Source: Dehalococcoidia bacterium
Lineage (GTDB): Bacteria; Chloroflexota; Dehalococcoidia; DSTF01; JACRBR01
Direction of reading: 5' to 3'
NCBI GenBank assembly: GCA_035632115.1
Contig: DASQHL010000133.1
Span: forward strand, 792 to 64,791
Length of the DNA stretch: 64,000 nt
The notes under the pieces were generated by a model, which did not search any database, was not told the origin of the DNA, and saw only the letters and a program-made list of their open reading frames with translations. The translations under genes and the position numbers were made by a program. Positions 4,592 to 40,171 of this stretch are shown here, one piece after another. Numbering within the stretch: the stretch's first letter is position 1; every line of letters begins with the position of its first letter.

Positions 4592-5539
4592 TCAGGCGAA
4601 GGCGGCCACCACCTCGTCATTGATGCGCTGGTACACCTCCCGTTTCCAGGGACCCTGGCTCATCATGATCATCTGGCTGACCCCGGCTCGCGCGTACTCC
4701 TCCACCACCCCGCGGACGTGCGCCGCGTTGCCGATGGGCAGGAGCCGCTTCGCCTCCTCCGGCGACAGCCCCATGCCCGCGCCGAACATCCCGGCGACCC
4801 GGTCGATCAGCCCCTGGTTCTCGCTCACGACAATCGTGGCGAACACTGTCTTCTCGATCTCCGCCGGATCGCGGCCGGCGTCGCGGCAGTGGCGTTCCAG
4901 CACGTCGATCTTCGCGCGGACGGCGGCGGGCGTGCCGGAGACATTCATCACGTCGCCGTACCGCGCCAGCGTGCGCAGCGTGCGCTTCTCGCCGCCACCG
5001 GCGACCATGATCGGCGCATGCGGGCGCTGCACGCACCGCGGCACGAAGACGGCATCGCGCAGCGCGTAGTGCTTGCCCTCGAAGTTGACGGGGCCCGTGG
5101 CGTCGAACAGCGCGCGGATCAGCGCGACGGCCTCCTCCAGCCGGTCCTCGCGCTCCCTCACGGGTGGAAAGGGAATGCCGTACATGCGATGCTCGCCCTC
5201 GTGCCAGGCAGCGCCGATGCCGAACTCCAGGCGGCCGTTGCTGAGGTGGTCGATCGTCGCCGCCATCTTCGCGAGGACCGCGGGTTGCCGGTACGTCACG
5301 CCCGTGACGAGGCACCCGAGCCGGATGCGCCGCGTGACGGCCGCAAGCGCGGCGAGCGCCGACCAGCCTTCGAAGCAGTTGGCGTTCACGTCCTGGCCGG
5401 CGCCCGGCGGGACAAAGTGGTCGAACGTCCAGGCGCTGTGGAACTGCGTCTCGCGGTCGAGGAACGTCCACATGTCCTCGATCTCACGCCATTCGACGTT
5501 GTTGAGACTCGTCTGGAGTCCGAAGCGCATGGTCGTCAT
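4592..5539 (-). CDS. Luciferase-like monooxygenase (LLM) family, F420-dependent oxidoreductase class
   Basis: 315-aa ORF. Full-length luciferase-like TIM-barrel similarity (…LEFGIGAAWHEGEH…, …IMVAGGGEKRTLRTLARYGDVMNV…). Confidence 0.85.
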   Translation of the reverse strand: MTTMRFGLQTSLNNVEWREIEDMWTFLDRETQFHSAWTFDHFVPPGAGQDVNANCFEGWSALAALAAVTRRIRLGCLVTGVTYRQPAVLAKMAATIDHLSNGRLEFGIGAAWHEGEHRMYGIPFPPVREREDRLEEAVALIRALFDATGPVNFEGKHYALRDAVFVPRCVQRPHAPIMVAGGGEKRTLRTLARYGDVMNVSGTPAAVRAKIDVLERHCRDAGRDPAEIEKTVFATIVVSENQGLIDRVAGMFGAGMGLSPEEAKRLLPIGNAAHVRGVVEEYARAGVSQMIMMSQGPWKREVYQRINDEVVAAFA

Positions 5540-5635
5540 GTCGTCCCCCTCGCTGCCACTGTCGCGAGCAGCAGGATACGCGGCTGTCGTGCTTCGGGAC
5601 AGCGCGGGCCGTCGGCTCAGGCGCCCGGAAGGGGG

Positions 5636-6253
5636 TTATGGCCAGAGGTCTGGATACCGCTGCTGGTGGCGCCCGCGCAGCTCCTCGAACAGGGCGCGAT
5701 AGACCGGGGTGGCGAGGTCAGGCGTGGTCATGAGCACGGCGTCCTCGTTGTTGTCGGTGTAGTAGCGCCGTCGGAGACCGACGCGGGAAAAGCCGTACTT
5801 CTCGTAGAGGAGCTGGGCGGCAGCGTTCGAAGCGCGCACCTCCAGCGTCACGCACTCCTGGTCGTACCCCCGCGCTTGCTCGATCGCCGTGATAACGAGG
5901 CGCTCGCCGATGCCCATGCGGCGGTACGCCTCCCGCACGGCGACCGTGACGATGTGCGCTTCGCCGACCATCAGCCAGATGCCGATGAACCCGAGCAGCC
6001 GCTCGCCGGATGCGCTGTCGTCGCTGCCGACGATGCGCCGGAGCGTGCTCCAGAGGCCGCCCGCCGGCTGCGCGTCCGCCTCCTCCGCGGGCGTGGTGAT
6101 GACCGTGTAGCGCGCAATCTGGTTGGTCAGCTCGCGGCGATAGGCGGTCGGCGGCCACATCGCCGAGAATGATTCCCGCTCGATCTCCGCGACCTGCACG
6201 ATGTCGTCGGCTGACATCGGCCGGAGCCGTGTCCGCAGAAGCGTACGCATCAT
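5636..6253 (-). CDS. rimI: GNAT N-acetyltransferase, ribosomal-protein-alanine acetyltransferase (RimI)-like
   Basis: GNAT motif …VAVREAYRRMGIGERLV… and the RimI-like N-terminus IVQVAEIERESF. The true start may be the internal Met at ~6217. Confidence 0.75.
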   Translation of the reverse strand: MMRTLLRTRLRPMSADDIVQVAEIERESFSAMWPPTAYRRELTNQIARYTVITTPAEEADAQPAGGLWSTLRRIVGSDDSASGERLLGFIGIWLMVGEAHIVTVAVREAYRRMGIGERLVITAIEQARGYDQECVTLEVRASNAAAQLLYEKYGFSRVGLRRRYYTDNNEDAVLMTTPDLATPVYRALFEELRGRHQQRYPDLWP

Positions 6254-6293
6254 CCCAGTCTAACATCGGCGGCGGGCGCCAGCCCCGCAGCCC

Positions 6294-8561
6294 TCAGCGC
6301 GGTAGCGACGGCCGGCCCACGCCCTCGTACAGCTGCCGGTAGCGCGCGTAGTTCTCCAGCACGAGGCGCACGTAGCTGCGTGTCTCGTCGAACTCGAGGT
6401 CTTCGACGAACAGGTCGTCGTCGGCGCCAGCGGCGGCTGCTGCGCTCGTGGCCGCGCCCGGCCCGCCGTTGTAGGCGGCGAGCGCCCGGTAGGGGTCGCC
6501 GTTGAACTGGCGGAGCTGGTCGGCGAGGTAGGTGGCGCCGAACCGCAGGCTGACACTCGGCCGGTAGAGGTCGCTGGCCGTGAAGGCGCCGTCGCCGAGC
6601 GCGGTGGCGATGGCCGCGCCGGTGGACGGGATCACCTGCGTCAACCCCAACGCGCCGGCGCTCGAGCCCGCCTGCGCGTCGTAGAAGCTCTCCTGTCGGA
6701 CGAGGGCCAGCAGCAGCGTTGGCGACACTCCCGCCGCCGCCGCGGCCGATGCCGTGAGGTCGCTGTACGCCAGTGGGTAGGCGATGCGAAGCAAGTCGTC
6801 CGGAGGGGCGGGCCGCCCGGCGCCGGTCATCAGCGCGATCAGCGTGGACGCGGCGCGGGCGGCGGCGCTGGTGCGGCCGTCCTGCTGCAGCCGCCGCGTG
6901 ACCTGGAACATCGCGCCCGCGTCCAGCGCGTTCGCCGTGATGATGCCGCGGTACACCGTCTCCGACTGAGCGTGGAGGCCGACGTCGTCCAGGTCCGCCG
7001 CGACGTCCCACTGCGCTCCGCTCGGCAGCTGGGCGGTCGCCGGATCGGCGCCCACCGCGTTGCGCACGAACGTCGCGATGCGCGACCAGTCGGGCGTGTA
7101 CGTCTTGATGTTCGGCTTGCGCTGGCGGGAGTCGTTCTTGCCCAGCAGCACCTCGGCCCGCAGCGCGTAGTAGCTGCCAGGCGCCCCTGGCGCCGTCTCA
7201 TCGACGACGCGTTGAAGCACCTGGCGCGCGCTGGCATCGTGCTCGGCGAGCAGCGCGCGGCCCTGCCAGAAGCGCGCGCGCGTCGCCGTCGCCGCGTCGC
7301 TGGCACTCGCGGCCGTAGCCCATGCCGCCGCCGCACCCGCGTCGTCGCCCGCGCGGAACATCACGAGGCCGCGGTGGAACGCGGCATCGGCTGCCCATTG
7401 CGACGCCGGATAGCCATCGACAAGGGCCTGGTACGTCGCGGCCGCGTCCGCCGTGCGCCCCGCCTGCTCCAGCAGGCGCCCGCGCCACCAGAGCGCGGAA
7501 TCGGCGAGCGTCCCGGTTGGATCGAGGTCGTGCGCGCGCTGGTAGCCATCCATCGCCGCCGCCGTGTTGCCCGCGCGCTCGTCCATGGCGGCGATGTAGT
7601 ACGTCGCCTCCGCGGCGTGGTCCCCCGCGACCACCGCGCGCGCGAGCGCCGCGCGCGCATCGGCGTCGTGGCCGGCGCGATAGGCGACGACGCCGCGCAG
7701 GTAGTCGCTCACGGGTACCGAAGCGGCGTCGAGCTCCGCCACCAGCCCGGCGGCCAGCGCGCTCTCTGGGCTCATCGCAACCGCGCGTTGGTACTGTGCG
7801 GCCCAGTCCGCGTTGCCCTGCCGCTTCTCGATGGCGCCGATGCGCGCGAGCGCGGACGGCACGTCGTCTCCGGCGTCGCGGGCACGGCCGTACCAGGCGA
7901 GTGCATCGGCCGTCGCGCCGCCGTCATCGAACGCCTTGCCGATGCTGAACATGAACGAGTTCTTGAACGCCGGCAGGACGTTGCTGCTCATCACCCGCTG
8001 TGCGGCGGCCTCGGCGTCCGCGGTCCGCCCCAGCCGCGCGAGGAGCTTCGCCTGCTCGATCCGCGCGAAGTCCGCGAGCGCGCCGCCCGCCGCGATGTAG
8101 CGCGTGTAGCCATCGACCGCGTGGAGCGGGTCGCCGGCGTCGTCAAGCGCAGACGCGAGCATGTAGGTCGCTTCGCTGCCATCGGCGCCGCCGCCGGCGC
8201 CGGCAAGGTAGGCGCGCAGGACCGGGATCGCCTCCGCGGCCCGGGAGGTGCGCACCAGGAGCTGCGCCTGCGCGAGGAGGGCGCGCTGGCGTTCCTCACC
8301 CGACTTCGCCGCCGCGACCGCCGCGTACACGTTGATCGCCGCCTCGAAGTCGCCCGTGGCGCGCAGCCTCTGGCCCAGCGCCGCGTCCGCCGGCGCAGGA
8401 GTGGCCGTCGCCGTAGCAGCGCCAGGCGCGAGTGTCGCTGGCGCGAGCGTGGCACTGGGCACGGCGCGCTTACCGCTTCCGCTGCACGCGGCGCAGAAGA
8501 TGCCGATGACGGAGATGAGCGTCGTTGCGCGCGCGGCGATGCGACTGCTGGTTGTGTGCAT
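6294..8561 (-). CDS. Lipoprotein soluble lytic transglycosylase with N-terminal TPR repeats and a C-terminal SLT domain
   Basis: Lipobox LISVIGIFCAACSG. Long TPR-like Ala-rich repeats. SLT catalytic region …LVRQESFYDAQAGSSAGALGLTQVIPSTG…AAYNGGPGA. Confidence 0.85.
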   Translation of the reverse strand: MHTTSSRIAARATTLISVIGIFCAACSGSGKRAVPSATLAPATLAPGAATATATPAPADAALGQRLRATGDFEAAINVYAAVAAAKSGEERQRALLAQAQLLVRTSRAAEAIPVLRAYLAGAGGGADGSEATYMLASALDDAGDPLHAVDGYTRYIAAGGALADFARIEQAKLLARLGRTADAEAAAQRVMSSNVLPAFKNSFMFSIGKAFDDGGATADALAWYGRARDAGDDVPSALARIGAIEKRQGNADWAAQYQRAVAMSPESALAAGLVAELDAASVPVSDYLRGVVAYRAGHDADARAALARAVVAGDHAAEATYYIAAMDERAGNTAAAMDGYQRAHDLDPTGTLADSALWWRGRLLEQAGRTADAAATYQALVDGYPASQWAADAAFHRGLVMFRAGDDAGAAAAWATAASASDAATATRARFWQGRALLAEHDASARQVLQRVVDETAPGAPGSYYALRAEVLLGKNDSRQRKPNIKTYTPDWSRIATFVRNAVGADPATAQLPSGAQWDVAADLDDVGLHAQSETVYRGIITANALDAGAMFQVTRRLQQDGRTSAAARAASTLIALMTGAGRPAPPDDLLRIAYPLAYSDLTASAAAAAGVSPTLLLALVRQESFYDAQAGSSAGALGLTQVIPSTGAAIATALGDGAFTASDLYRPSVSLRFGATYLADQLRQFNGDPYRALAAYNGGPGAATSAAAAAGADDDLFVEDLEFDETRSYVRLVLENYARYRQLYEGVGRPSLPR

Positions 8562-8652: not shown

Positions 8653-9135
8653 ATGAACCTGTTCCGCTTCACCATCATTGACCCGAACGGCGGCATCAGC
8701 TTCGTGGCGCACGGCGAGGCGCTGCCCGCGCTCCTGAAGGCGTGCGCGACGGAGCCGGCGGCGATGGACGAGCTGCTCGATCGCGCGGAGCCGTACTACC
8801 ACGGCCTGCGCGAGCGCGTCGCCAACGGCCTCGCCATGTTCGATGAGCGGAACGCACCCGGCCGGTACGCCGCGATCCACGGCGCGCTCCGCCAGGCGAA
8901 CCCCGACGAGACGCCGCTCTTCCGCATCGTCGACGAGGAGACGCGCGAGGCGAGCCTGCGGCCGGTGAAGGCAGGCGGCGTCATCTTCAACCTGATCGAC
9001 CGCCGCATCGTCACGTTGCAGAACGGCTACCAGGAGATCACGCGCAACGGGCGCGGCGAAGTGTTCGACGGCGAGCGCATGACGGGCGCGACGTTCATCT
9101 ACCGGCTGCCCAAGACGTGGGCGCTCGTACCGTAG
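8653..9135 (+). CDS. Hypothetical protein of 160 aa with no recognisable domain
   Basis: ATG at 8653 in frame with ORF 8248..9135. The upstream part of that ORF is antisense to the transglycosylase. A sigma70-like promoter lies upstream at 8591-8619. High GC3. Confidence 0.5.
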   Translation: MNLFRFTIIDPNGGISFVAHGEALPALLKACATEPAAMDELLDRAEPYYHGLRERVANGLAMFDERNAPGRYAAIHGALRQANPDETPLFRIVDEETREASLRPVKAGGVIFNLIDRRIVTLQNGYQEITRNGRGEVFDGERMTGATFIYRLPKTWALVP

Positions 9136-9171
9136 CGCCGCGCCGGGACGCTTTCCCGTATCCTGAGGCCC

Positions 9172-10368
9172 ATGGATCCCGCCCGTCGCTGGCAGGGCCG
9201 CCCGGTCTGGGCGGAGATCGATCTCGATGCGCTCGCGCACAACGTGCGCGCGCTGACGGCGCGCGCGGCGCCGGCGCGGCTCTGCGCCGTCGTGAAGGCG
9301 AACGCGTACGGACACGGCGCGGTGGCCGTGGCGCGTGCCGCTCTGGACGCTGGTGCGGCGAGCCTGGGAGTCGTCTGTGTCGACGAGGCCGAGGAACTCC
9401 GGCTCGCCGGCATCGAGGCGCCGGTGCTGGTGCTCGGCTACACCCAAGCGTCGGAGGCGGAGCGCATCGTCGCTCTGGGGCTGACGCCGACCGTGGACTC
9501 CGCGCAGACGGCGCTGGCGTTGTCGCGCTTCGCGGCGCAGCGCGGCGTCACGCAGCGCGTCCACGTCGAGTTGGAGAGCGGCCTGAACCGGCACGGCTTG
9601 CCCATCGATGAGCTCGTGCCGTTCGCGGAAGGGCTGCGGGCGCTGCCGGCGATCGAAGTGGAAGGGATCTTCACCCATTTCGCCGCGGCCGAAGAGGGCG
9701 ACAGCGCCTTCACGCGCATGCAGTACGATGCGCTGCTCGCCGCGGCGCGCCGCCTGCCGTGGATCCCCGTGCGGCACTGCTCCGCATCGGCCAGTGTGCT
9801 GCTGACGCCGGACATGGCGCTGGACATGGTGCGCGCCGGCCTGGGCATCTACGGCTACGAGCCGGCGCCGGGCGCGTCCGGCCACGTGGAGTTGCGGCGC
9901 GTGCTCTCGCTGAAGAGCCGCGTGGCGCGCGTCATCGACATCGACCCGGGGGCCACCGTGGGCTACGGCCGCACGTGGACCGCGCAGCGACCCTCGCGCA
10001 TCGCGCTGATCATGTGCGGCTACGCCGACGGGCTGCGGCGCGCCCTCTCCAACCGCGCCGGCGTGTTGCTGCGTGGCCGGCGCGCGCCGATCGCGGGCCG
10101 CATCGCCATGGACATGTGCATGGCCGACGTGACGGACATCGACGGCGTTGCGCCGGACGACGAGGTCGTTATCATTGGTGCGCAGGGCGGCGCAGCCGTC
10201 GACGCCGACGAGTTGGCCGCGCTCGCCGGCACCATTTCGTGGGAGGTCCTGGCGGGGATCAGCGCCCGTGTGCCGCGCCTGTACCTGGCCGGCGGGGTCC
10301 CCGTCTCGGAGACAACGCTGAACCAACGCGTGCCCGCGCCCCTCCGCGAGGTGACGCCCGCCCGCTGA
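9172..10368 (+). CDS. alr: Alanine racemase
   Basis: PLP-lysine motif AVVKANAYGHGA. Full-length alanine racemase similarity. Confidence 0.9.
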   Translation: MDPARRWQGRPVWAEIDLDALAHNVRALTARAAPARLCAVVKANAYGHGAVAVARAALDAGAASLGVVCVDEAEELRLAGIEAPVLVLGYTQASEAERIVALGLTPTVDSAQTALALSRFAAQRGVTQRVHVELESGLNRHGLPIDELVPFAEGLRALPAIEVEGIFTHFAAAEEGDSAFTRMQYDALLAAARRLPWIPVRHCSASASVLLTPDMALDMVRAGLGIYGYEPAPGASGHVELRRVLSLKSRVARVIDIDPGATVGYGRTWTAQRPSRIALIMCGYADGLRRALSNRAGVLLRGRRAPIAGRIAMDMCMADVTDIDGVAPDDEVVIIGAQGGAAVDADELAALAGTISWEVLAGISARVPRLYLAGGVPVSETTLNQRVPAPLREVTPAR

Positions 10369-10381
10369 CCGGAGAGACACC

Positions 10382-10900
10382 ATGCCGGAACAGAGCCCGA
10401 ACGTCTTTACCTACCCACGCAACGAGCCCGGCACCCAGGGCCACCTCGACCTCGTCGAGGCGCTGCGCGTGATGCCGCAGCAGCTCGCCGAAGCCCTGCG
10501 TGGCGCGACCGACGCCGAGGCGGTCCGGCGCGAGGCGCCCGGCCGATGGTGCATCAAGGAGCTGGTCGGTCACCTGCGTGACGCCGCCGAGGTCTACCAT
10601 CAGCGGCTGTACATGATGGCCACGCAGACCGATCCCGTGCTGGAGCCGTACGATCAGGATGCCTTCGCCGCGGAGCACCACTATATGGATCGCGACATCG
10701 ACGCGATGCTGCGCGAGCTGGCGTCGTTTCGCGCCGTTACCGTGGAGCTGCTGACGACCCTGGTCAACTGGAACTGGGCGCGGACGGGCCAGCACCTGGA
10801 GACCGGCCGCCTCAGCATCCGCCAGATCGTGGAGCACATGGTGGAGCACGAAACCGGCCACATCGGCGAGATCCGGCGGCTGCGAGCGGGTGCCCCGTAG
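10382..10900 (+). CDS. DinB/YfiT-family (DinB_2) metal-dependent protein, a putative thiol-dependent transferase/hydrolase
   Basis: DinB_2 four-helix-bundle signature with conserved His residues (…KELVGHLRDAAEVYHQRL…, …IVEHMVEHETGHIGEI…). Confidence 0.75.
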   Translation: MPEQSPNVFTYPRNEPGTQGHLDLVEALRVMPQQLAEALRGATDAEAVRREAPGRWCIKELVGHLRDAAEVYHQRLYMMATQTDPVLEPYDQDAFAAEHHYMDRDIDAMLRELASFRAVTVELLTTLVNWNWARTGQHLETGRLSIRQIVEHMVEHETGHIGEIRRLRAGAP

Positions 10901-12139: not shown

Positions 12140-12811
12140 CTACGCCTGCGGGGTCAGCTTCGCGACAAGATGCAGACGCCGGTCGAAGAGCAGGCTCGCC
12201 GGCCACGGGTACAGCCCCGCGTGCTCGCTCCACTGCCGCACGTCCAGGCCTGCCGCCGCAAACGCGGCGCGCCACTCGCCCGGCGAGAGGTAGTGGTACG
12301 GGAGCGCCACGCCGTGCTGGTGATTCCCGAACCAGTCCATGAAGCGCAGCGTGCGCTGCGCCAGCAACCCCTGCCGCAGGTGGTCCTTGATCACGATGCA
12401 ATCGCCCGCCACCCGCCGCGCCTCCCGGAGCAGCGGCAGCGGGTCGATCGTGTGGTGCAGCACGTCGACGAACAGCACGGTATCGAAGCTGGCGGCCGGA
12501 TGCGGGATCGTGCTCCCATCGAACTGCTCCACGGGGATGCGCGCGCCCGGCCGCACGAGCACCTCGACGCCGTGGATCGTGACGTCCGGACGCTCGCGGA
12601 GGATCATCGCGTCGAGCGTGCCATCGCCGCAGCCGACGTCCAGGATGCGCGCCCCCCGCGGCAGGAGCGGTCCGAGCTGCGCGGCGAGCCTGCGCACTCT
12701 GCGTCCGAAGACGAACCTCGCGTGGATGTCGCCGCCCCGCCTGTTCGCCGTCGCGCCGGGCGGCGTCGGCTGCCCCTGCGGCGGCGGCCGGCCGGGCTCC
12801 CCGGCGTTCAC
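12140..12811 (-). CDS. Class I SAM-dependent methyltransferase
   Basis: Motif I ILDVGCGDGTLD. GTG start overlaps the TGA stop of the upstream GT2 gene (GTGA). The remainder of ORF 12140..13675 is antisense to the GT2 gene. Confidence 0.7.
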   Translation of the reverse strand: MNAGEPGRPPPQGQPTPPGATANRRGGDIHARFVFGRRVRRLAAQLGPLLPRGARILDVGCGDGTLDAMILRERPDVTIHGVEVLVRPGARIPVEQFDGSTIPHPAASFDTVLFVDVLHHTIDPLPLLREARRVAGDCIVIKDHLRQGLLAQRTLRFMDWFGNHQHGVALPYHYLSPGEWRAAFAAAGLDVRQWSEHAGLYPWPASLLFDRRLHLVAKLTPQA

Positions 12812-13977
12812 TCCGTCTCCAGCAGGCTGGCGAGCGCGCCGACGAGGCCGATGTTGACGCCGACAATGATCAGCGCCTGCGCGATCGCGGCCAGGTCGAG
12901 CGTGCTGATACCGGAGATGGTGACAAAGGCGAGCACCAGGTCCAGCGCGGCGCCGGCGGCGATCAGCGCCAGCGCCAGCGCGATCAGCGCCTCCAATCCC
13001 AGGTAGCGGCGGTAGAAGCGCAGCACCGCGTCTTCGTTCGTGATGCCGCGCCGCGTCGTGAACAGCCGCGAGGCGAAGCCCAGCAGCAGCGCGTTCACGC
13101 CCACGACCAGGAAGATGCCGCCGGCGAAGATCGGCTGCCAGCGCGTGTCGCCGATCTGGATGCCGTTCGCCGGCAGCGCCAGAGCGAGCGTCAGCACGCC
13201 GACGACCGTCAGCAACGCGCCCGGGAGCGTGAACAGGTAGTTCGGGCTGGCGAGCAGCAGGAAGCGCAGGTGGCGCCACCCGTCTCGGAACGTGTTGAGC
13301 TTCGCCTCGCCGAGCCGTTCGCCGTACGGCACCGGCACCTCGGCGACCTTCAGGCCCCGGCGTGCCGCCTTGAGGATCATCTCGGACGCCAGCTCCATGC
13401 CGTCCGTGCGCAGCTCCAGCCGGTCGAGCGCGCCCCGCGTGAAGGCGCGGAGGCCGCACTGGCTGTCGCCGGCACGGAGGCCCGTGAACAGCTTCAGCAG
13501 GAACGAGATCGCCGGCGTGCCAATGTAGCGGTGGCTCCACGTCATGGCCCCGGGCGCGATGCCCCCGGCGAACCGGTTGCCCACCGACATGTCGTACCCC
13601 TCGGCCAGCGGTTGGATCAGGCCGCCGAGGTCGCTGAAATCGTACGTGTCGTCGCAGTCTCCCATGACCAGCCATTCGCCGCGCGCCTCGGCGAAGCCGC
13701 GGCGCAACGCCGCCCCGTAGCCGCGCGCGGACTCGCGCACCACCCGCGCCCCGGCGGTGGCGGCTATCTCGGCGGAGGCGTCCTCCGACCCGTTATCGAC
13801 GACGATCACCTCGCCCGGCGTTCGGGTGCGCTTCAGCCAGTCCTGCGCCTTCCGCACGCAGACGCCGACCGTCTGCTCCTCGTTCAGGCACGGCATGACG
13901 ATGGAGACGAACGCCTGCGCGTTCACCGCGGCGGCGCGCGCCTCGTACGCCGGTTGACCGGGACTGTTGCTCGCCAC
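12808..13977 (-). CDS. GT2-family polyprenyl-phosphate sugar synthase-like glycosyltransferase (DPM1/GtrB/Ppm1-like), catalytic domain plus C-terminal TM helices
   Basis: N-terminal …SIVMPCLNEEQTV…VIVVDNGSEDASAEIA… (GT-A DxD region). Four C-terminal hydrophobic helices. GTG start at 13977 follows GAAAGGG. The upstream part of ORF 12808..15291 is non-coding or antisense. Confidence 0.75.
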   Translation of the reverse strand: MASNSPGQPAYEARAAAVNAQAFVSIVMPCLNEEQTVGVCVRKAQDWLKRTRTPGEVIVVDNGSEDASAEIAATAGARVVRESARGYGAALRRGFAEARGEWLVMGDCDDTYDFSDLGGLIQPLAEGYDMSVGNRFAGGIAPGAMTWSHRYIGTPAISFLLKLFTGLRAGDSQCGLRAFTRGALDRLELRTDGMELASEMILKAARRGLKVAEVPVPYGERLGEAKLNTFRDGWRHLRFLLLASPNYLFTLPGALLTVVGVLTLALALPANGIQIGDTRWQPIFAGGIFLVVGVNALLLGFASRLFTTRRGITNEDAVLRFYRRYLGLEALIALALALIAAGAALDLVLAFVTISGISTLDLAAIAQALIIVGVNIGLVGALASLLETE

Positions 13978-14211
13978 GCCGCACCCTTTCGAGGCAGGAC
14001 ACGTCCAACCGTGCTGTCGCGTGACGCTGCCCCACGCGGTCCGGCCTCGCGGTCTACCATACTGCCCGTGGGCGCCGGCGGCCAAGCGATCGGGCCACCA
14101 CGCGGCCGAATGGCCGCGTTCCCGCTGCTGGGAGCACGCGGGGCGCCATTGTGGGGAGCGATCCGCGGCAGATACGCTGCCGGGCAGCATGCCGATGCAC
14201 GTGACCCGGGG

Positions 14212-17025
14212 ATGCCTGTACCAGCGGTGCTGCCCGTGAGCGCGCCACGTCGGTGGGCGCAACGTCTCCGCCGGACGTGGCCCCGGACGCCAGCCTCCAT
14301 CGCCATCACCATCGCCCTGGGCGTCAACCTGCTGGTGGCCGGCGCATACCTCTGGAGTCGCGGCGGCGAGACGATTCATCTGCGGATGGTCGCGCAGGAT
14401 GACCACTTCACGGTGTTCGTCAACGGGCGCGAGCAGGCGTCGGCGCGGCTCGAGGCGGCCGCCACGGGCGGCATCCGCCTGACGGTCGCCGACACGGGCG
14501 CGATCCCGAGCCTGCCGACGCCGCGCGGGATCGATAGCGTCCGCGTCACGGACCTCGCCACCAATGCTGTGCTCTTCCAGGACGACTTCTCCAGGTCGCC
14601 GCGGGACAACGCGGCGTGGCGCATCGTGGGGACGCCACTGGTGAACGGCGGTGCCGTCGGCGCAGGCCAGCAGGGCGTGACGCTGCAGTCCTTCGGCCAC
14701 CCGTGGCACAACTACGCCGTCGATGTCACGTATCGCAACATCGTGGCGGCGTCCGTCCGTGTGCGCGCGGCGGACGAGCAGAACGGCGTCGATTTCAGCT
14801 TCCGGCCATTCCGGCACCTGGACAACTCGCTCTCGCTCCTCGTCAACGGCAAGACCGTCACGTCGATCTCCGGTCCGACCCTGAAGCTCTCGCCGCAGAC
14901 GACGATCCGGTCGATGCTGTGGACGCTGCTGGACCCGTATCCAAAGGTCGCGCTGCTGCTGCTCGTGGGGTTGATCGCCGTGGCGGTGCTGCAGTTCGTG
15001 CCGGCGGAGACCGTGCGTGCGCTGCATGTGCCGCTGCCGCGGGCCGCACCGTGGCTCGCCGTCGGAGCGATGGCGGCGGTGGCGTTCGCCGTGACGTTGT
15101 TCCTGGGGTACGTGTACGGGAGCCACATGCCACACGTCCCGGATTCGGTGTCGTACGTGTTCCAGGCGAAGGTGCTGGCTGCGGGCCACCTCTCGGCGCC
15201 GGCGCCCCCCTCTCCGGCGTTCGACTTCTTCTTCCCTCCACTGATCGAGGTGCACCACGGGCGTTGGGCCAGCGTCTACCCGTTCGGCCACCCGCTGGTC
15301 CTCGCGGTCGGCGAGCTGTTCCGCGCCATCTGGCTGGTGCCACCGCTGATCGGCGCGGCGGGCGTGGCGCTGATGTTCGCGGTCGGGCGGCGCCTATACA
15401 ACGTGCGGACGGCGTTGCTGGCCGCCCTGCTGCTGGCCGGCTCGCCGTTCTTCATGATGTCGGCAAGCGACTACATGTCGCACAACACCGCCGCGTTCTA
15501 CGTGCTGCTGTCCGTGCTGTTCCTCGTGTTGCACGATCGGCGGCCGCTGTTGTTCCCGTTCCTCTCCGGTGTCTTCTTCGGGCTGCTCTTCAACACCCGC
15601 CCGCTGACGGCGGCGGGCCTCGTCGCGCCGTACGGCGTCATGCTGCTGAGCTTCCTGGTGCCCCGCAACGGGCGGAAACTCGCGCTGAAGCAGATCGTCG
15701 CATTCGCAGCCGGAGGGCTGCTGATGCTGCTGGCGTACTACCTGTACACGTGGGGCGCGACGGGTAGCCCGTTCACGATCTCCGCCACGCAGGCGAATAA
15801 GAACAACGTCGGGTTCGGCGGGACCCACACCCTGGCTGCCGGCGTCTCGAACGACCAGACGCAGCTGGCCATGCTGGCTCTTGTCCTCAACGACTGGCCC
15901 GTGTACCTCGGCCTGGTGGTGGTGCTCCTGCCGTTCATCCTGGGTACGCGCAACCGCTGGGACTGGTTCTTCCTCGCGTGCGCGGCCATGGCCATGGGCG
16001 TGTACACGCTCTACTACTCGCCGGGAATCATGCACGGGCCGCGGTACTGGTACGAGGCGACGCCGTTCCTGCTCCTCCTGACGGCGCGTGGCGTCGACCG
16101 CGCGGCGCGGTTGCTGGCGGCCGGCGCGGCGCACCTGCGGACGCGGCTGCTGCGCACGGAGGCCGCGCCGGCCGAGTGGGCCGGCGTGTCCGTCACGTAC
16201 GCGTTCGTCGTCGTGCTGATAGCGGCGGGCGCCTACGGGTGGCTGCGCGGCGACGGCAAGCCCTGGCGCATCGACCTCATGCCGGCGCATGCGCGCGACC
16301 TGCGTGGATTCAACGGCGCCAACGACGCCTTCACCCGGACGGTCGCCGCTGCCCACCTGCACAACGCCCTCGTGCTGATGCAGCCGTGCCCGAACTGGCA
16401 GTGCTACGGCACCGTGTTCTGGACCATGTCGCCGTGGCTCACCGGGAACGTGGTCTACGCGCGGAACCTCGATGGTGGGCTCCAGCCCGTCTTTGACGCC
16501 TTCCCGGATCGCCGGGTCTACATCGGCGACTGGGCTGCGCGCACCCTCCTGCCCTACGGCGCCACGCCGGCCGCGGTCGGGCCCTCGCAAGGCCCGGCGA
16601 CCGCGCCGCGCGCGAAGGAGATCCCCACCGAGGCACCGCGCGCCACGCCCACCCCGGCGCCGACTCCGACCATCGATGTGGCGCTCGCGTCGCGGCGGGA
16701 TACCGCCCGCCGCAAGGATCTGGACGCCGTGGCAGCGGCGCTCGATCGGTACCGGTCGCAGCACGGCGCCTATCCGCAGGTCAACGGCGTGCAGACGCTC
16801 TGCGGCTACCCGTCCGATGTCGGCTGCGTGCTCAAGAAGGTGCTCGACCCGCTGCCGACCGACCCACGGAACAACCAGTCGTACTGGTACACGTCTGACG
16901 GCACGTCGTTCACGCTGTTTGCGGAGATGGAAGAGGCGCCCGGGCCGTCCCAGTGCCCCAACCCCGCGCCCGAGCACCTGGCCGGCGTGCCGAATCTGTA
17001 CTGCGTCCATCGTGGCTCCGGTTGA
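14212..17025 (+). CDS. PMT/ArnT-like (GT-C fold, PMT_2/GT39-GT83-like) membrane glycosyltransferase with an N-terminal beta-rich extracytoplasmic domain and a C-terminal T2SS GspG/pseudopilin-like domain
   Basis: Uses the frame of ORF 13270..17025, whose 5' part is antisense to the GT2 gene. Candidate starts are the ATGs at ~14110 and ~14212. There are at least 10 predicted TM helices. C-terminal motif LDAVAAALDRYRSQHGAYPQ…DPLPTDPRNNQSYWYTSDGTSFTLFAEME matches GspG-type pseudopilin globular domains. Confidence 0.75.
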   Translation: MPVPAVLPVSAPRRWAQRLRRTWPRTPASIAITIALGVNLLVAGAYLWSRGGETIHLRMVAQDDHFTVFVNGREQASARLEAAATGGIRLTVADTGAIPSLPTPRGIDSVRVTDLATNAVLFQDDFSRSPRDNAAWRIVGTPLVNGGAVGAGQQGVTLQSFGHPWHNYAVDVTYRNIVAASVRVRAADEQNGVDFSFRPFRHLDNSLSLLVNGKTVTSISGPTLKLSPQTTIRSMLWTLLDPYPKVALLLLVGLIAVAVLQFVPAETVRALHVPLPRAAPWLAVGAMAAVAFAVTLFLGYVYGSHMPHVPDSVSYVFQAKVLAAGHLSAPAPPSPAFDFFFPPLIEVHHGRWASVYPFGHPLVLAVGELFRAIWLVPPLIGAAGVALMFAVGRRLYNVRTALLAALLLAGSPFFMMSASDYMSHNTAAFYVLLSVLFLVLHDRRPLLFPFLSGVFFGLLFNTRPLTAAGLVAPYGVMLLSFLVPRNGRKLALKQIVAFAAGGLLMLLAYYLYTWGATGSPFTISATQANKNNVGFGGTHTLAAGVSNDQTQLAMLALVLNDWPVYLGLVVVLLPFILGTRNRWDWFFLACAAMAMGVYTLYYSPGIMHGPRYWYEATPFLLLLTARGVDRAARLLAAGAAHLRTRLLRTEAAPAEWAGVSVTYAFVVVLIAAGAYGWLRGDGKPWRIDLMPAHARDLRGFNGANDAFTRTVAAAHLHNALVLMQPCPNWQCYGTVFWTMSPWLTGNVVYARNLDGGLQPVFDAFPDRRVYIGDWAARTLLPYGATPAAVGPSQGPATAPRAKEIPTEAPRATPTPAPTPTIDVALASRRDTARRKDLDAVAAALDRYRSQHGAYPQVNGVQTLCGYPSDVGCVLKKVLDPLPTDPRNNQSYWYTSDGTSFTLFAEMEEAPGPSQCPNPAPEHLAGVPNLYCVHRGSG

Positions 17026-17165: not shown

Positions 17166-19157
17166 GTGATGATGCCTAGAAATCCCTTCGACATCCTTGG
17201 CATCTCGTTGGACGCCGAGCCAGAGGTCATCCTAGCCGCCTACAGGACGCTTGCGAAGAAGTACCATCCTGACCTTAACCCTAACGATTCGCCAAGTTAC
17301 CTCAACGAGCGCATGGCCGATCTGAACTGGGCGCGAGCAGAACTCGATCGCGATCTGCCCGGCTGGCGAGCGAGGAAGAGAGCCGAGACGCGCCAGTCGG
17401 GCGCTGGATACGCACAGCCACGCCAACCCCCCCCCCCACGTCACGCTCCAGCGCCGTCGGATGCGCCGCCCTCCAAAGCCCCGGGCCAGGCCCAAAGTAC
17501 CGGCGCAGGTACCGTTTCCGAAGCTCAAGCTACACGCGCGCCACGGCCGTCGTGGCTATCGAACGAACTGCTCATCGAGATCGCGTTCGTCGCCGCCGTG
17601 ACCGCGGCGGCGCTGCTGATGCGCCTGTGGGGTCTCTCCGGCCTGCCGCACGGGCTCCACGGCGACGAGGCGGCGACCGGCCTCGACGCGCGAAAGATCC
17701 TCGCCGGCACCGACCTCTTCCCCTACACGCCGAGCGCGCTCGGCCAGCCGTCCGGGCCGATGTACTGGGCGGCGCTCTGGATCAAGCTCCTCGGCTCGAC
17801 GATCTTCGCTGTCCGCCTGGCCATGGCACTGCTCGGCGTAGGCACGGTCGTCCTCGGCTACTACGCGTTTCGGCTGCTCTTCGGGCGGCCGGTGGCATGG
17901 GCGGGCGCCACCATGCTCGCCTTCTCATCGTGGCTCGTCTTCTACAACCGCACAGGCTTCACCGCATCGGCGATGCCGTTCACGGAGATGGCGGCGCTGC
18001 TGGCCGTGGCCGTGGCGCTGCGAAAGGGTTCGCCCGCGTGGTTCATCCTCGCCGGCGCAGTGGTGGGCGCCGGCATCTACGGCTACTTCTCGTTCCCGCT
18101 CTTCGCCGTGGCGCTCGCGGTGTGGCTCGTCCTCCACGCGCTCGTCGAGCGGCTGCGACCGTTCGGCCTCACTGAGCCGTTCTGGCTGCACGCGCGCAAC
18201 GGCGCGCTGATGGCGCTGACCGCGCTGCTGCTCATCCAGCCGATGTGGCCCTACTTCACCGGCAAGAACCAGGGCTACACGCACGACCGCCAGGTGTTCG
18301 CACTCTCGAAGACACAGGCATACCAGCAGGCGGACACCCTCGGGCGTGTGCGGCTCTACTGGGACAACGCCCGCCACGTGATCAACGTGCTGCGGGAAGG
18401 TGGCCACCCCGACGCCTCGGACGGCTCGGGCGAAGTGTCGGCGCTGGACCCGCTACTGGTCGTGCTCTCACTGGCCGGCGCGGCCCTGTGCGCCGTCCTT
18501 GCCGTGACGCGGAAGCGCGCCGCCTACCTGCTGCCGCTGATCGTCGTCCCGATCGTGCTCATCGGCCCCATCTGGAGCGCCGGCGGCGTGCACCGGCGCT
18601 CGCTGGGGATCCTGCCCTTTGTGATCATGCCGGCCGCCGTGCTGCTGGGCACTGCGTGGGAGTGGCTCCGCGACCACGGCCGGCCGGGGCTTGCGGCGGC
18701 CGCCCTCTGCGTGCCGCTGGCGCTGTTCGCCGCCACGAACATCGACCGCTACTTCCGCCAGACGCCGGACTCGCAGGTGATGCTGTTCACCTACGCGCCG
18801 GAGCTGACCGACGCGGCGCTGCTGATCGATGCGCAGCCCCGGGACGTGCACGTCTACTTCGCCTCCGGGCGCTGGTCGGCCGGGTACGAGACGGTGCAGT
18901 ACCTCGTGCCGAATCGCGCGCTCGGCGACGGCACGCTGGAGGACCGGTCGAAGGAGTTCAGCAAGATCACCGGGTACGGCGGCCTCGACCGGACGCACCC
19001 TGCCTTGATCGTGCTCATGAACAACTACATGCAGGACGCGGACAAGGTCGCCGCCGAGTACCCGGAAGCGAAGAAGCTCGTCGGCGCCACGGTGAACAGG
19101 CTGCCGGCCTTCATCGCATTCTCCATCCCGGCACGGCAGGCGACGGGCGCGCCATGA
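17166..19157 (+). CDS. DnaJ J-domain fused to a PMT/ArnT-like (PMT_2) GT-C membrane glycosyltransferase
   Basis: N-terminal J domain with HPD (FDILGISLDAEPEVILAAYRTLAKKYHPDLNPND). Pro-rich linker. Multi-TM GT-C domain with the ArnT/PMT-type motif LHGDEAATGLDARKI in the first periplasmic loop. Confidence 0.8.
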   Translation: MMMPRNPFDILGISLDAEPEVILAAYRTLAKKYHPDLNPNDSPSYLNERMADLNWARAELDRDLPGWRARKRAETRQSGAGYAQPRQPPPPRHAPAPSDAPPSKAPGQAQSTGAGTVSEAQATRAPRPSWLSNELLIEIAFVAAVTAAALLMRLWGLSGLPHGLHGDEAATGLDARKILAGTDLFPYTPSALGQPSGPMYWAALWIKLLGSTIFAVRLAMALLGVGTVVLGYYAFRLLFGRPVAWAGATMLAFSSWLVFYNRTGFTASAMPFTEMAALLAVAVALRKGSPAWFILAGAVVGAGIYGYFSFPLFAVALAVWLVLHALVERLRPFGLTEPFWLHARNGALMALTALLLIQPMWPYFTGKNQGYTHDRQVFALSKTQAYQQADTLGRVRLYWDNARHVINVLREGGHPDASDGSGEVSALDPLLVVLSLAGAALCAVLAVTRKRAAYLLPLIVVPIVLIGPIWSAGGVHRRSLGILPFVIMPAAVLLGTAWEWLRDHGRPGLAAAALCVPLALFAATNIDRYFRQTPDSQVMLFTYAPELTDAALLIDAQPRDVHVYFASGRWSAGYETVQYLVPNRALGDGTLEDRSKEFSKITGYGGLDRTHPALIVLMNNYMQDADKVAAEYPEAKKLVGATVNRLPAFIAFSIPARQATGAP

Positions 19158-19214: not shown

Positions 19215-19592
19215 CTAGCAGCAGCTCTTCGCCTGGCCGCCGCCGTCGGCCGTTTGGAAGCTCGAACCGCACGCGCAGCCCTTGACGGCGTTCGGATTGA
19301 AGATCGTGAACCCGGACTTCATGATGTCGTCCACGTAGTCGATCTCCGCGCCCCGCATCAGCGGCGCGCTCTCCGGATCAACCAGCACCTTCACGCCCGC
19401 GTGTTCGAGCACGATGTCGCCCTCTTCGGTGCCCTGGGCGATCGCCATGCCGTACTGGTAGCCGGAGCAGCCGCCCCCGACGACGAAGACGCGCAGCGCG
19501 CCGTTCTCGACGCCGCGGTCCTTGAGCAGCGCCGCCGCCTTCTCCGCCGCCTTGTCCGTGATCGTCACGATGGCTTCGATGTCCTGGACCAT
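19215..19592 (-). CDS. erpA: Iron-sulfur cluster insertion/A-type carrier protein (ErpA/IscA/HesB family)
   Basis: ATG at 19592 preceded by GAAGGGAG. Three conserved Cys (…GGGCSGYQYG…KGCACGSSF). 125 aa. The rest of ORF 19215..19943 is an upstream extension without an RBS. Confidence 0.85.
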   Translation of the reverse strand: MVQDIEAIVTITDKAAEKAAALLKDRGVENGALRVFVVGGGCSGYQYGMAIAQGTEEGDIVLEHAGVKVLVDPESAPLMRGAEIDYVDDIMKSGFTIFNPNAVKGCACGSSFQTADGGGQAKSCC

Positions 19593-19693: not shown

Positions 19694-20953
19694 CTACCGT
19701 ACCGGCAGCAACTCCTCGTACAGCGCCGCTACCGCGTCCGCCACGTTCGCCCAGCGGAAGCGCTCGACCGCCTCGCGCCCGGCGCGGCCAAACGATGCCC
19801 GAAGCTCGTCGTTCTCCAGCAGCAGCTCCAGGCGCTCGGCGAACGGCTCTGGACAGCGCCACGGCACCAGGTACCCCGTCTCGCCGTCGCTGACCGTGCT
19901 GGTCAGCCCGCCGACCCGTGACGCGATTACCGGCGTTCCGCACGCCATCGATTCCACCGCCACCAGCCCGAAGCTCTCGTAGTACGACGGCACGACGCAG
20001 ACGTCTGCGGCGTTGTAGTACAACGGCAGCGTCTCGTGCGGCACGGCGCCGATGAACGAGATGTGATGGTCGATGCCGAGGGCCGCGGCGTGCCGGCGCA
20101 GCTCATCGATCTGCGCCCGCGCCCGCGCGTCGCCGCCGACGATCAGCACGGCGAAGTTCTCGTCATCGTGGAGCTGCGCCGCCGCGCTGATCAGGATGTC
20201 GATGCCCTTGAGCGGCTCGATGCGGCCGACGAAGAGGATGATCCGCTGTGACGCGCCGATGCCGAGACGCCGCCGCGCGAACTCCTTGTCCATCGGCGCG
20301 AACAGGTCCAGGTCAACGCCGCACGGCACCACCGAGATCGCATCGCCTCGCGCGCCGTACAGCGACATCAGCAGGTGCCGCTCGTGCTGGCTCGCCACCA
20401 CGATGCGGTCGGCGGCGGCGGCGATCGCGCGCTCGGCGGCGATCCGGCCGGCGGGCTCATGCTCGCCCGCATGGGCGCGATTCTTCACTTCGCCCAGCGT
20501 GTGGAACATCGCCACGTGCGGCACGCCCCAGTCCGCCGCCAGGCGCGACGCCACCACCCCGGACATCCAGTAATGGCTGTGCACCACGTCGTACGCGGAG
20601 CCCTCCCGCGTCACGAACGCGCGCACGCCGGCCTCGAACTCGTCCAGCACGCCGGCGATCGCTTCCTTCTCGACCGGCGCGTTCGGCCCGGCGGCGATGT
20701 GCACGACGCGCGCGTTCGGGCCGAACGGCTGCACCTCCGGCGCCGCGTCCGACGCCAGGCGCGTGAACACGTCGATGGTGTACCCGCGTGAGCCAAGTTC
20801 GCGGCTCAGCTCGCGCACGTAGACGTTCATGCCGCCCGTCTCGCGCCCACCCAGCGTGGCCAGCGGCGACGTGTGTGCCGAGATCACGGCGATGCGGCGG
20901 CTCCGCGGCGCGCGCCTGGCGGCGGGCGGCACGGGCTCGTGGAGGGCTGTCAC
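19694..20953 (-). CDS. GT4 retaining glycosyltransferase of the MshA (D-inositol-3-phosphate glycosyltransferase) family
   Basis: MshA-type N-terminal signature RIAVISAHTSPLATLGGRETGGMNVYVRELS. C-terminal GT4 E-x7-E region (…VVPSYYESFGLVAVESMACGTPVIAS…). GTG start overlaps the upstream stop (GTGA). Confidence 0.8.
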   Translation of the reverse strand: MTALHEPVPPAARRAPRSRRIAVISAHTSPLATLGGRETGGMNVYVRELSRELGSRGYTIDVFTRLASDAAPEVQPFGPNARVVHIAAGPNAPVEKEAIAGVLDEFEAGVRAFVTREGSAYDVVHSHYWMSGVVASRLAADWGVPHVAMFHTLGEVKNRAHAGEHEPAGRIAAERAIAAAADRIVVASQHERHLLMSLYGARGDAISVVPCGVDLDLFAPMDKEFARRRLGIGASQRIILFVGRIEPLKGIDILISAAAQLHDDENFAVLIVGGDARARAQIDELRRHAAALGIDHHISFIGAVPHETLPLYYNAADVCVVPSYYESFGLVAVESMACGTPVIASRVGGLTSTVSDGETGYLVPWRCPEPFAERLELLLENDELRASFGRAGREAVERFRWANVADAVAALYEELLPVR

Positions 20954-21936
20954 TTCGTCAACACCAGCCGGTACACCTGCTGGTCCTTTCCGCCAAGGTC
21001 GTACTTGTAGCTCTCGTCGCCTCGCAGGAAGTCTACGCACGAGCGGCCCTGTTCGATCGCGTCCCGGAGCAGCAGCGCCTTGGACATCAGGCCGACCGCG
21101 TAGTGCGCGTAGGCGGGGTCGTACCCACTATTGTACATGTACAGCCGCCCGCCCAGGTCGAAGTTGAGCACCGCCGCCACCGCCTGGCCATCCAGCGTCA
21201 AGATGTACAGCCGCAGCATCCCCTCCGAGGCCATCGTCGACGTCATCTCCCGGAAGAACGCCTCCATGCCCGGCCGCTCCAGGAACTCCTCCTTGTGGTG
21301 CGAGCTGATGCGCATCAGGTGGAACAGCGTATCGAGCGATGCGCCCGCTTCCTCCGCCTCCGTGACGGCGCGGAGCCGCAGGTCCCCGCCGGCGCTCTCC
21401 AGCCGCCGCAGCTTGCGCCGCAGCTCGTGGCGGTCCTTCTTGGAGAGCGTCGCCAGGTAGCCGTCCCACGTGTCCGGCAGGTCCACCGTCGGCGAGTGCG
21501 CCTCGTCCTCGCGCTGCACGGCCAGGCCCAGGGCGGCGGCGGCATCGGCCGCGGCGGACGTCGTGGGGCTGGCCGCCCGCAGGCCGCGCAGGTCGATTTC
21601 GCGCACCCCGTCCGCCAGCAGGCGTTCCAGCACGGCGGGGAAGAACGACCGCTCGAAGCCCGGCGTCACGACCACGTCCATGTAGTCGCAGATGGAGTAG
21701 TGCCCGACCAGCTCCGCCCGCTCGCCCTCGCAGAGCAACGGCGCCACGCCGATCAGGCGCTCGCCGTCCCGCGCGGTCAGCAGGCGCACGCGGCGCCCCG
21801 CCTGGAAGTGCTTCAGCCAGACGCGTTGCCAGGCCGGCGTGACGAACGGCACCGGGTTCGATACCTGCCCGAGCAGCCCGACCCACTCCGCGCTGATCCG
21901 GTCGAGCGGCTCATCCAGCACCGTCAACGGCGTCAC
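20950..21936 (-). CDS. FemAB/CelD-like GNAT (Acetyltransf_6/BioF2-like) acyl- or aminoacyl-transferase
   Basis: 329-aa protein of the GNAT-fold FemAB/CelD family (…[44 protein letters not shown]…). GTG start overlaps the folE stop (GTGA). Confidence 0.7.
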
Positions 21937-22535
21937 GAGCCGCGCACCAGCGAGAGGAACTCGGCCCGCGTCACCTGGTTCTGCCGGAAGATCCCGCGCG
22001 TCGCCGAGGTGACCATCCGGCTGCCCGGCTTCTTGACACCGCGCTGCGTCATGCACAGGTGTTCCGCTGCGATGACGACGGCGACGCCGTCGGGCTGCAG
22101 CGTCTCCAGGATCGCGTCCGCCACCTGCCCCGTGAGCCGTTCTTGGAGCTGTGGCCGCCGCGCGTACCCCTCGACCAGCCGCGCCAGCTTGCTCACGCCG
22201 ACCACGCGGCCGTCCGGGATGTAGCCGACGGCCGCCGTTCCGTGGAACGGCATGAAGTGGTGCTCACAGACGCTGTAAAACGGGATGTCGCGCAGGATCA
22301 CCATCTCGTCGTGCCCCACCTCGAATCCGACCTTCAGGTACTCCCTCGGGTCGATGTGGAGCCCTTCGAACAGCTCCGCGTACATCCGGGCCACCCGTGC
22401 GGGCGTGTCGCGAAGCCCCTCCCGGTCCGGCGCCTCCCCTACAGCTACGATGATCTCGCGCACGGCGGCCTCGATCCGGCCGAGGTCCATCGGGCCGGAG
22501 GCGTCGATGCGGTGGCGGATGTCTTCGAGCGTCAT
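21933..22535 (-). CDS. folE: GTP cyclohydrolase I
   Basis: 200-aa FolE with catalytic motifs …[21 protein letters not shown]… and the zinc ligands C…HH…C. The rest of ORF 21933..23414 is non-coding or antisense. Confidence 0.9.
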
Positions 22536-40160: not shown

Positions 40161-40171
40161 GGAGGATCGCC

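Follow-up and report, generated by a model that had tools for sequence, protein, structure and literature searches.

A conserved pair of genes for a Fem-like transferase and an MshA-type glycosyltransferase, often preceded by folE, as a candidate aminoacyl-glucosaminyl-polyol pathway in Chloroflexota

The window analyzed here is a stretch of 64,000 nucleotides (nt) from a Dehalococcoidia metagenome-assembled genome (MAG) of ~70% G+C (contig DASQHL010000133.1, positions 792 to 64,791). On its minus strand folE, encoding GTP cyclohydrolase I, leads an overlapping trio of genes, the other two of which encode a Fem-like transferase with tandem GNAT domains (henceforth GNAT6) and an MshA-like retaining glycosyltransferase (henceforth GT4). 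A reading made from the letters alone (the sequence-only reading) had proposed that the three genes are chained by GTGA stop/start overlaps and that GT4 carries the motif HTSPL...GGMNVY; the genes, the motif and both junctions, ggctcGTGAcgccg at 21936-21933 (folE/GNAT6) and acgaaGTGAcagccc at 20953-20950 (GNAT6/GT4), were confirmed in the sequence as well as by independent gene calls. The start codons match those of a Logan contig (L085), whose three products likewise measure 200, 328 and 419 amino acids (aa), and a twin of GNAT6 (P0001, 328 aa) is 100% identical. An ErpA-like gene downstream of GT4, a PTPS gene and two DinB_2 genes, all named in the same reading, are also where it had placed them (Table 1).

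Table 1. Position and profile support of the trio and of the window genes that bear on its interpretation.
Feature	Coordinates	Strand	Support
folE, GTP cyclohydrolase I, 200 aa	21933-22535	minus	PF01227 249 bits; TIGR00063 237.5 bits
GTGA overlap, folE TGA stop with GNAT6 GTG start	21933-21936	minus	read in the sequence
GNAT6, Fem-like tandem-GNAT transferase (Acetyltransf_6), 328 aa	20950-21936	minus	PF13480 124.5 bits
GTGA overlap, GNAT6 stop with GT4 GTG start	20950-20953	minus	read in the sequence
GT4, MshA-like retaining glycosyltransferase, 419 aa	19694-20953	minus	TIGR03449 394.6 bits
ErpA/IscA-type Fe-S carrier	19215-19592	minus	TIGR00049 120.8 bits
PTPS-family gene	36936-37415	plus	Pfam PTPS 75 bits
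DinB_2-family gene	10382-10900		Pfam MST 40.9 bits
DinB_2-family gene	54958-55518		MDMPI_N 31.8 bits
CehA/McbA-family metallohydrolase, 704 aa	22692-24806	plus	NF038032 193.6 bits; no Pfam match

The order of the three genes extends well beyond the window. When GTDB species were scanned with one genome each, at least 574 confirmed loci were obtained, and synteny was determined by tblastn, with all open reading frames (ORFs) clustered, in the best 80 of these, to which the synteny counts refer; six further loci (L086-L091) were added. The best 80 all belong to Chloroflexota (Dehalococcoidia, SAR202 and two Anaerolineaceae). GNAT6 has more than 1,400 close relatives in the databases, and a profile search returned 1,379 clusters at 50% identity (E <= 1e-30). 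The GT4 gene lies directly 3' of GNAT6 in 78 of the 80 species-level loci, down to 40% GNAT6 identity, and also in all six further loci, including two (L088 and L089) in which GNAT6 identity is 35-37%. Among the 78 loci whose upstream sequence is long enough to judge, 61 have folE directly 5' of GNAT6, and the projected spacing is -7 to +10 nt for most of the related loci. Because the trio recurs in 61 of 78 loci and the pair in 78 of 80, folE-GNAT6-GT4 is a genuinely conserved arrangement, beyond chance, and its homologues are co-located in relatives as the sequence-only reading implied.

In relatives whose GNAT6 shares 40-53% identity, the genes run glyA-ssb-c21-c10-hom-thrC-[folE]-GNAT6-GT4-[DUF502]-[tandem GNAT, opposite strand]-PIG-L-ccsB. 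The six further loci vary this theme. L086 reads GNAT6-GT4-PIG-L, with a run of N upstream that leaves the folE position unreadable, and L087 reads ECH< folE-GNAT6-GT4-PIG-L-ccsB beside a ribosomal-protein operon. The other four are without folE: L088, the fullest example, has GNAT(Acetyltransf_1)-GNAT6-GT4-PIG-L-PAP2; L089 and L090 both have thrC-GNAT6-GT4 with a convergent tandem GNAT and a PAP2 gene nearby, joined in L089 by a PIG-L gene; and in L091 two GFO/IDH/MocA oxidoreductases precede GNAT6-GT4-PIG-L. Since the pair outlasts changes that its partners and folE do not, the invariant core consists of GNAT6 and GT4, and the genes that recur beside it encode a deacetylase, an N-acetyltransferase and, in some loci, a phosphatase. 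In one 3.6-Mb long-read MAG chromosome (OY969567.1; L001/L005 8984-10232) the GT4 homologue is split in two frames, with high-scoring segment pairs at 8984-9841 and 9858-10232, and the gene call covers just a fragment of 146 aa; the split probably reflects an indel in the assembly rather than a pseudogene.

The GT4 product matches Pfam Glycos_transf_1 (159 bits) and Glyco_transf_4 (100 bits), and its best NCBIfam model is that of MshA (TIGR03449), which it follows over positions 1-403 of 406 with 394.6 bits, under the cut-off of 462.5; the BshA model TIGR03999 gives 114.4 bits, under a cut-off of 273.7. The best match among solved structures is Corynebacterium glutamicum MshA (3C48, 293.9 bits). 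Thermosynechococcus sucrose-phosphate synthase (TeSPS, 6KIH) scores 262.5 bits, PimA 81 bits and the BshA structures 5D00, 2JJM and 3MBO 58-75 bits, and the 42.9 bits obtained with the tetrahydrobiopterin glucosyltransferase 9V0L come from residues 239-371 of the query only, that is from the generic donor domain. Ten residues of C. glutamicum MshA (N25, K78, Y110, H133, T134, R154, R231, K236, E316 and E324), which we take to bind UDP-N-acetylglucosamine (UDP-GlcNAc) or the phosphate and ring of inositol-1-phosphate and whose roles were reportedly assigned by Vetting et al. in 2008, agree in position with the 3C4Q sequence. The window GT4 has all ten, and nine are shared by 73 or more of 75 GT4 orthologues. 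At the sites that separate MshA from sucrose-phosphate synthase (M24/Q, K78/R, SH/TN and T134/S), the window GT4 likewise has the MshA state. Judged by structure scores and residues, then, the comparison with MshA, BshA and pterin glycosyltransferases that the sequence-only reading had called for identifies GT4 as MshA-type, neither BshA-type nor pterin-glycosyltransferase-type. A phosphorylated polyol or sugar is a well-supported prediction for its acceptor, 1L-myo-inositol-1-phosphate being the most likely one; since the phosphate-binding residues of MshA are kept, L-malate would be an unlikely acceptor.

Profile assignment, also proposed in the sequence-only reading, places GNAT6 in Acetyltransf_6 (PF13480, 124.5 bits). 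The match to FemAB_like is marginal (PF04339, 27.4 bits against a cut-off of 27) and none is found to FemAB (PF02388), while the best NCBIfam models, namely BspF, FemX and a PEP-CTERM FemAB model, are all reached far under their cut-offs (21.9 bits against 500 for FemX, NF047883). A profile made from the GNAT6 alignment retrieved nothing meaningful from the PDB sequences (best E-value 0.13). In a fold search with the GNAT6 model, the closest solved structures of known function (FemA, FemX and MprF) were all aminoacyl-tRNA-dependent transferases, and the model has their two-GNAT-domain fold; the predicted structure thus assigns GNAT6 to the FemABX fold class. Over 83 sequences, 31 positions of GNAT6 show at least 97% conservation; they include a basic helix, KKDRHE.RRK.R (166-177), and the pair Y310-K311, which may equal F304-K305 of FemX_Wv, a tentative mapping in which K305 would be the catalytic lysine. 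By analogy, Sbb17 and Orf11 of streptothricin-type antibiotic pathways, which are FemABX-fold aminoacyl-tRNA-dependent transferases, constitute a direct precedent for GNAT6, although these two enzymes belong to antibiotic clusters and GNAT6 sits in a Chloroflexota housekeeping block. GNAT6 also differs from the FemABX-fold transferases in its identity to them, which is only 11-15%, and in its Pfam family, which is Acetyltransf_6 and not FemAB. From the modeled fold we infer that GNAT6 may aminoacylate the sugar product of GT4 from aminoacyl-tRNA, in place of MshC or BshC. Two metagenomic proteins of ~810 aa (P0336 and P0386) each consist of two complete Fem-like Acetyltransf_6 modules in tandem, and their reading as GNAT6-glycosyltransferase fusions was ruled out because both are tandem GNAT6 duplications; such duplications suggest that two residues may be added stepwise in some organisms.

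The partners of the core complete the picture. A PIG-L deacetylase gene follows 3' on the same strand in 46 of the 80 loci, often 2-12 nt past GT4, and is also adjacent in L086, L087, L088 and L091. These proteins match PF02585, with BshB1 as the best NCBIfam model (91.8 bits), then BshB2 (65 bits), Mca (40 bits) and MshB (37.6 bits), all of them under the curated cut-offs (224 for MshB). A tandem GNAT occurs in 19 of the 80 loci, and its best model is MshD (TIGR03448, 116.8 bits full-length against a cut-off of 163). Three distant genomes have a PAP2-family phosphatase gene next to the cluster or close by (L088 11155-12204, L089 1-26 and L090 2450-3034), a candidate for a dephosphorylation step and, by analogy, for the counterpart of the MshA2 phosphatase of the mycothiol pathway. 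In L091 the two GFO/IDH/MocA oxidoreductase genes (5374-7990) are co-oriented with GNAT6-GT4-PIG-L and immediately 5' of it. Inositol 2-dehydrogenases are members of this oxidoreductase family, and the two genes could possibly hint at an inositol-type acceptor.

Mycothiol is made by MshA, MshA2, MshB, MshC and MshD (PMC4360819), and the core and its partners match this list save for the ligase, because they comprise a GT4, a deacetylase, an N-acetyltransferase and sometimes a phosphatase. We therefore favour, with moderate confidence, a pathway of the mycothiol type that leads to an aminoacyl-glucosaminyl-polyol and in which a Fem-type transferase replaces MshC or BshC. First, GT4 would glycosylate a phosphorylated polyol with GlcNAc taken from UDP-GlcNAc; the likeliest polyol is 1L-myo-inositol-1-phosphate. 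Second, a phosphatase, for which PAP2 is a candidate in some genomes, would strip the phosphate. Third, the PIG-L/LmbE deacetylase, whose gene is adjacent in 46 relatives and absent from the window, would free the amine of glucosamine (GlcN). Fourth, the Fem-like GNAT6 would place an amino acid from aminoacyl-tRNA on this amine, a step that falls to ATP-dependent ligases, MshC or BshC, in the known pathways; cysteine is proposed here only by analogy with mycothiol and bacillithiol. Fifth, the MshD-like GNAT would N-acetylate the product in some lineages. More doubtful, and offered as a tentative extension, is the idea that Chloroflexota (Dehalococcoidia, SAR202 and others) make by this route an undescribed low-molecular-weight (LMW) thiol of the Cys-GlcN-inositol type, N-acetylated in some lineages, with the cysteine coming from Cys-tRNA(Cys) via the Fem-fold transferase.

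Compared with the mycothiol system of Actinobacteria, the likeness lies in GT4, whose best structural match is C. glutamicum MshA with donor and acceptor residues kept, in the PIG-L deacetylase and the tandem GNAT with MshD as best model carried by relatives, and in the five-step logic, which fits (PMC4360819). In contrast to that system, no MshC is seen in the sequence examined, a Fem-type tandem-GNAT protein occupies a conserved position beside the glycosyltransferase, the hosts are Chloroflexota, and the deacetylase of relatives scores higher on BshB1 than on MshB. The bacillithiol pathway (BshA, BshB and BshC; PMC4360819) shares the order of GT4, PIG-L deacetylase and amino-acid addition, and it is to BshB1 and BshB2 that the PIG-L neighbours, and to the YfiT bacillithiol transferase that one window DinB protein, are most similar; it differs in that GT4 resembles BshA poorly both by profile (114 bits on TIGR03999) and by structure (58-75 bits), and in that no BshC is seen in the sequence examined. 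Against NCBIfam the two DinB-family proteins of the window score 59.5 bits (YfiT bacillithiol transferase) and 27.4 bits (TIGR03083), both under the cut-offs. Their best matches are to thiol-dependent families, a weak point in favour of the mycothiol-type pathway, as such proteins are widespread. A search of the literature found no description of the GNAT6-GT4 cluster, no link between Dehalococcoidia and mycothiol and no LMW-thiol pathway for Chloroflexi.

Several observations weigh against this reading. Neither a PIG-L nor an MshD-like gene is found in the 64-kb window, or within 8 kb in ~20 close relatives (GNAT6 identity of at least 66%), and deacetylation is therefore unsupported for the window organism. 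In tblastn searches of the window, representatives of PIG-L and of the tandem GNAT matched nothing but a RimI-like gene (5636-6253), and that weakly, and a scan of the window for the HPDD motif gave no coding match. In the window organism the deacetylase may be encoded elsewhere in the genome, another hydrolase may replace it, or the Fem-like enzyme may, like MprF, have a hydroxyl as the group that it acylates. The CehA/McbA-family metallohydrolase gene of the window is divergent from folE, and its position is conserved in the window's clade, which is the clade without a nearby PIG-L gene; its product is a speculative candidate for the replacement hydrolase. Likewise, the cysteine in the fourth step would follow from analogy, and nothing identifies it. 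NCBIfam names the Acetyltransf_6 member BspF a crotonyl transferase, so tRNA use is not general to this family. The equivalent of MshA K78 is kept in only 46 of 75 GT4 orthologues, with no correlation to the presence of folE. The GT4, PIG-L and MshD-like proteins all fall under the curated equivalog cut-offs (394.6/462.5, 37.6/224 and 116.8/163). Finally, the folE-GNAT6 adjacency survives at least four upstream contexts (thrC, CehA, SerRS in L004 and ECH in L087), a persistence of folE that exceeds what simple inertia predicts. Two further searches are uninformative, as only ~17 kb per genome was covered: Ino1 (tblastn with an M. tuberculosis sequence) was unmatched in the window and ~1.3 Mb of loci, and MshC motifs (regular expressions and tblastn) were unmatched in the window and all loci. 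On balance, the MshA-like thiol route of the sequence-only reading stands favoured by the PIG-L, MshD-like and PAP2 genes of relatives, by the Fem fold and by the MshA-type GT4, and falls short in the window itself, which has no mshB-like or mshD-like gene.

Of the alternatives, the one that survives best keeps the enzymology and changes the product, which would be an aminoacyl-GlcN-inositol or related conjugate (with Gly, Ala, Ser, Lys or another residue) serving as a compatible solute, metal ligand or secondary metabolite. All the MshA-like, PIG-L and Fem-like evidence applies to such a non-thiol product equally, and the ~810-aa tandem duplications suggest that some organisms add two or more residues one after another. 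However, cysteine is favoured by the MshD-like N-acetyltransferase and by the agreement with mycothiol over five steps, the window contains DinB/MST/YfiT-like proteins, and the distribution over at least 574 species-level genomes, together with the housekeeping surroundings, looks like primary and not secondary metabolism. We consider a non-thiol product unlikely.

It is quite improbable that the pair serves the cell envelope, either by FemX-like addition of an amino acid to a peptidoglycan precursor or by building a PIG-A/PIG-L-like GlcN-phosphoinositol glycolipid or wall polymer that is aminoacylated as in the MprF reaction. The closest folds of GNAT6 would fit such a role. The organism has genes for peptidoglycan, encoding alanine racemase, SLT, MreB, an M23 peptidase and a MurA/AroA-family protein, and DUF502, PAP2 and CcsB-like membrane proteins are frequently encoded beside the cluster. 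GT4 is recognizably related to PimA-type phosphatidylinositol mannosyltransferases (81 bits), and the lack of a nearby deacetylase in the window's clade is compatible with O-aminoacylation. Yet GT4 is far closer to soluble MshA and sucrose-phosphate synthase than to PimA or other lipid-linked GT4 enzymes, and GNAT6 stays under every curated FemABX model (21.9 against 500 on NF047883; no match to PF02388). To our knowledge, tight and near-universal pairing with an MshA-like glycosyltransferase is not a feature of peptidoglycan Fem enzymes either, which we count against an envelope role.

The place of folE in the trio bears on another alternative, a sharpened form of one option offered by the sequence-only reading, in which the dihydroneopterin triphosphate made by FolE, or neopterin, would receive GlcNAc from GT4, a deacetylase would yield a solfapterin-like glucosaminyl-neopterin, and the Fem-like enzyme would aminoacylate its amine. 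GlcN-pterin needs exactly a GlcNAc transferase and a deacetylase, and folE lies directly 5', overlapping or nearly so, in 61 of 78 loci and in at least four upstream contexts. Solfapterin is described in PMC3546692, citing Lin & White 1988, as erythro-neopterin-3'-D-2-deoxy-2-aminoglucopyranoside, so that by this account a glucosaminyl-neopterin does occur in nature, and N-acetylglucosaminyl pterins occur in Chlorobium (PMC5683033; PMC3546692). The triphosphate side chain might in principle be accommodated by the phosphate-binding residues of GT4. The known pteridine glycosyltransferases, BGluT/PgtA of cyanobacteria and CtPGT of Chlorobium tepidum, which uses UDP-GlcNAc (PMC5683033), share with GT4 the GT-B fold and a Glycos_transf_1 donor domain. 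They differ, however, in being proteins of ~360 aa that are not MshA-like, with CtPGT in an AviGT4-like group, and the similarity of GT4 to 9V0L is confined to residues 239-371 and not full-length (42.9 bits, as against 293.9 for MshA).

folE itself encodes a canonical GTP cyclohydrolase I, probably the housekeeping enzyme, as the TIGR00063 score of 237.5 bits exceeds the cut-off of 181.6 and the PF01227 match (249 bits) spans profile positions 1-178 of 179. In 17 of 78 loci the GNAT6-GT4 core stands without folE and is directly preceded by thrC, and folE is missing in four of the five assessable further genomes (L088-L091). The thrC-folE and hom-thrC junctions are as tight as that of folE-GNAT6, with many overlaps of -8 and -4, so overlap is the local norm in this syntenic block and no sign of shared chemistry; the tight coupling on which the sequence-only reading had built its pathway argument is accordingly weak evidence. 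No other pterin gene (PTPS, SPR, folB or folK) is enriched around the cluster among the 80 loci. The only PTPS gene of the window lies 14 kb away, has QueD as its best model (71 bits against a cut-off of 89) and carries the motif CEPLHGH (Cx3HGH), which we take to be QueD-type; its sequence points to 7-deazaguanine/queuosine rather than biopterin synthesis. The MshD-like neighbour suits the mycothiol plan better as well. In sum, a pterin glycoside is disfavoured and has, in our estimate, poor prospects. folE is most likely a syntenic passenger for queuosine or folate synthesis and not a pathway enzyme; it would be co-transcribed and translationally coupled in the window and in many other lineages, yet a dispensable neighbour.

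Very improbable, finally, is the absence of any shared function, with three unrelated housekeeping genes merely packed in compact genomes: the unrelated glyA, ssb, hom, thrC and ccsB do stand in the same block with equally tight junctions, but the GNAT6-GT4 pair outlives every sampled rearrangement (78/80 and 6/6) and changes of both flanks, and PIG-L and MshD-like genes recur beside it.

Downstream of the trio, the ErpA/IscA-type gene (ErpA NF010147 112.3 bits, under the cut-off of 117) is separated from GT4 by a spacer of 101 nt that holds a promoter-like TTGAAG-17-TATACT at 19678-19650, and is probably driven by its own promoter. It lies 3' of GT4 only in ~13 close relatives, that is in the window's clade, and in one of the close relatives a gene for a Glyoxalase_6 family protein stands between GT4 and erpA (L002 10294-10683; L003 4031-4420). 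Further along, the window encodes a 663-aa fusion protein (17166-19157, plus strand) with a J-domain at its N-terminus (DnaJ, 35 bits) joined to a membrane glycosyltransferase domain of the PMT_2 type (49 bits); L001 has a PMT_2 homologue near the cluster as well. In the region 12808-17025 each strand carries a very long ORF, and the two overlap; by eye, the C-terminal part of the minus-strand ORF (12808-15291) looks like a GT2-type glycosyltransferase and the plus-strand ORF (13270-17025) like a large multi-pass membrane protein. Other genes of the window encode a Rex-type redox-sensing repressor (48525-49169, plus strand), a ComB-like 2-phosphosulfolactate phosphatase (51616-52503, minus strand; PF04029 188 bits) and an F420-dependent LLM oxidoreductase (4592-5539, minus strand; TIGR03560 252 bits, above the cut-off). 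A DUF4349 gene on the minus strand is followed by a DUF1800 and DUF1501 pair on the plus strand (37459-41422), all with strong Pfam scores.

For Chloroflexota, a phylum that includes the abundant marine SAR202 group as well as relatives that respire organohalides, the GNAT6-GT4 set, with its presence in at least 574 species-level genomes, provides a concrete and directly testable candidate for the source of a redox-buffer thiol, if one is used. It also carries a caution for the reading of compact genomes, since overlapping stop and start codons, as in hom-thrC-folE, are alone no evidence of a shared pathway. The mechanism by which BshC ligates cysteine was unknown, and its activity lacked proof in vitro, as of PMC4360819; if the Fem-like enzyme does move an amino acid from tRNA to a GlcN conjugate, it would offer a comparison for BshC, and the reach of tRNA-dependent non-ribosomal aminoacylation, which covers cell walls, lipids and antibiotics, would extend to central cofactor metabolism. 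Should that amino acid be cysteine, the enzyme would represent a third, tRNA-dependent solution to a step that MshC performs in Actinobacteria and that is assigned to BshC in Firmicutes.

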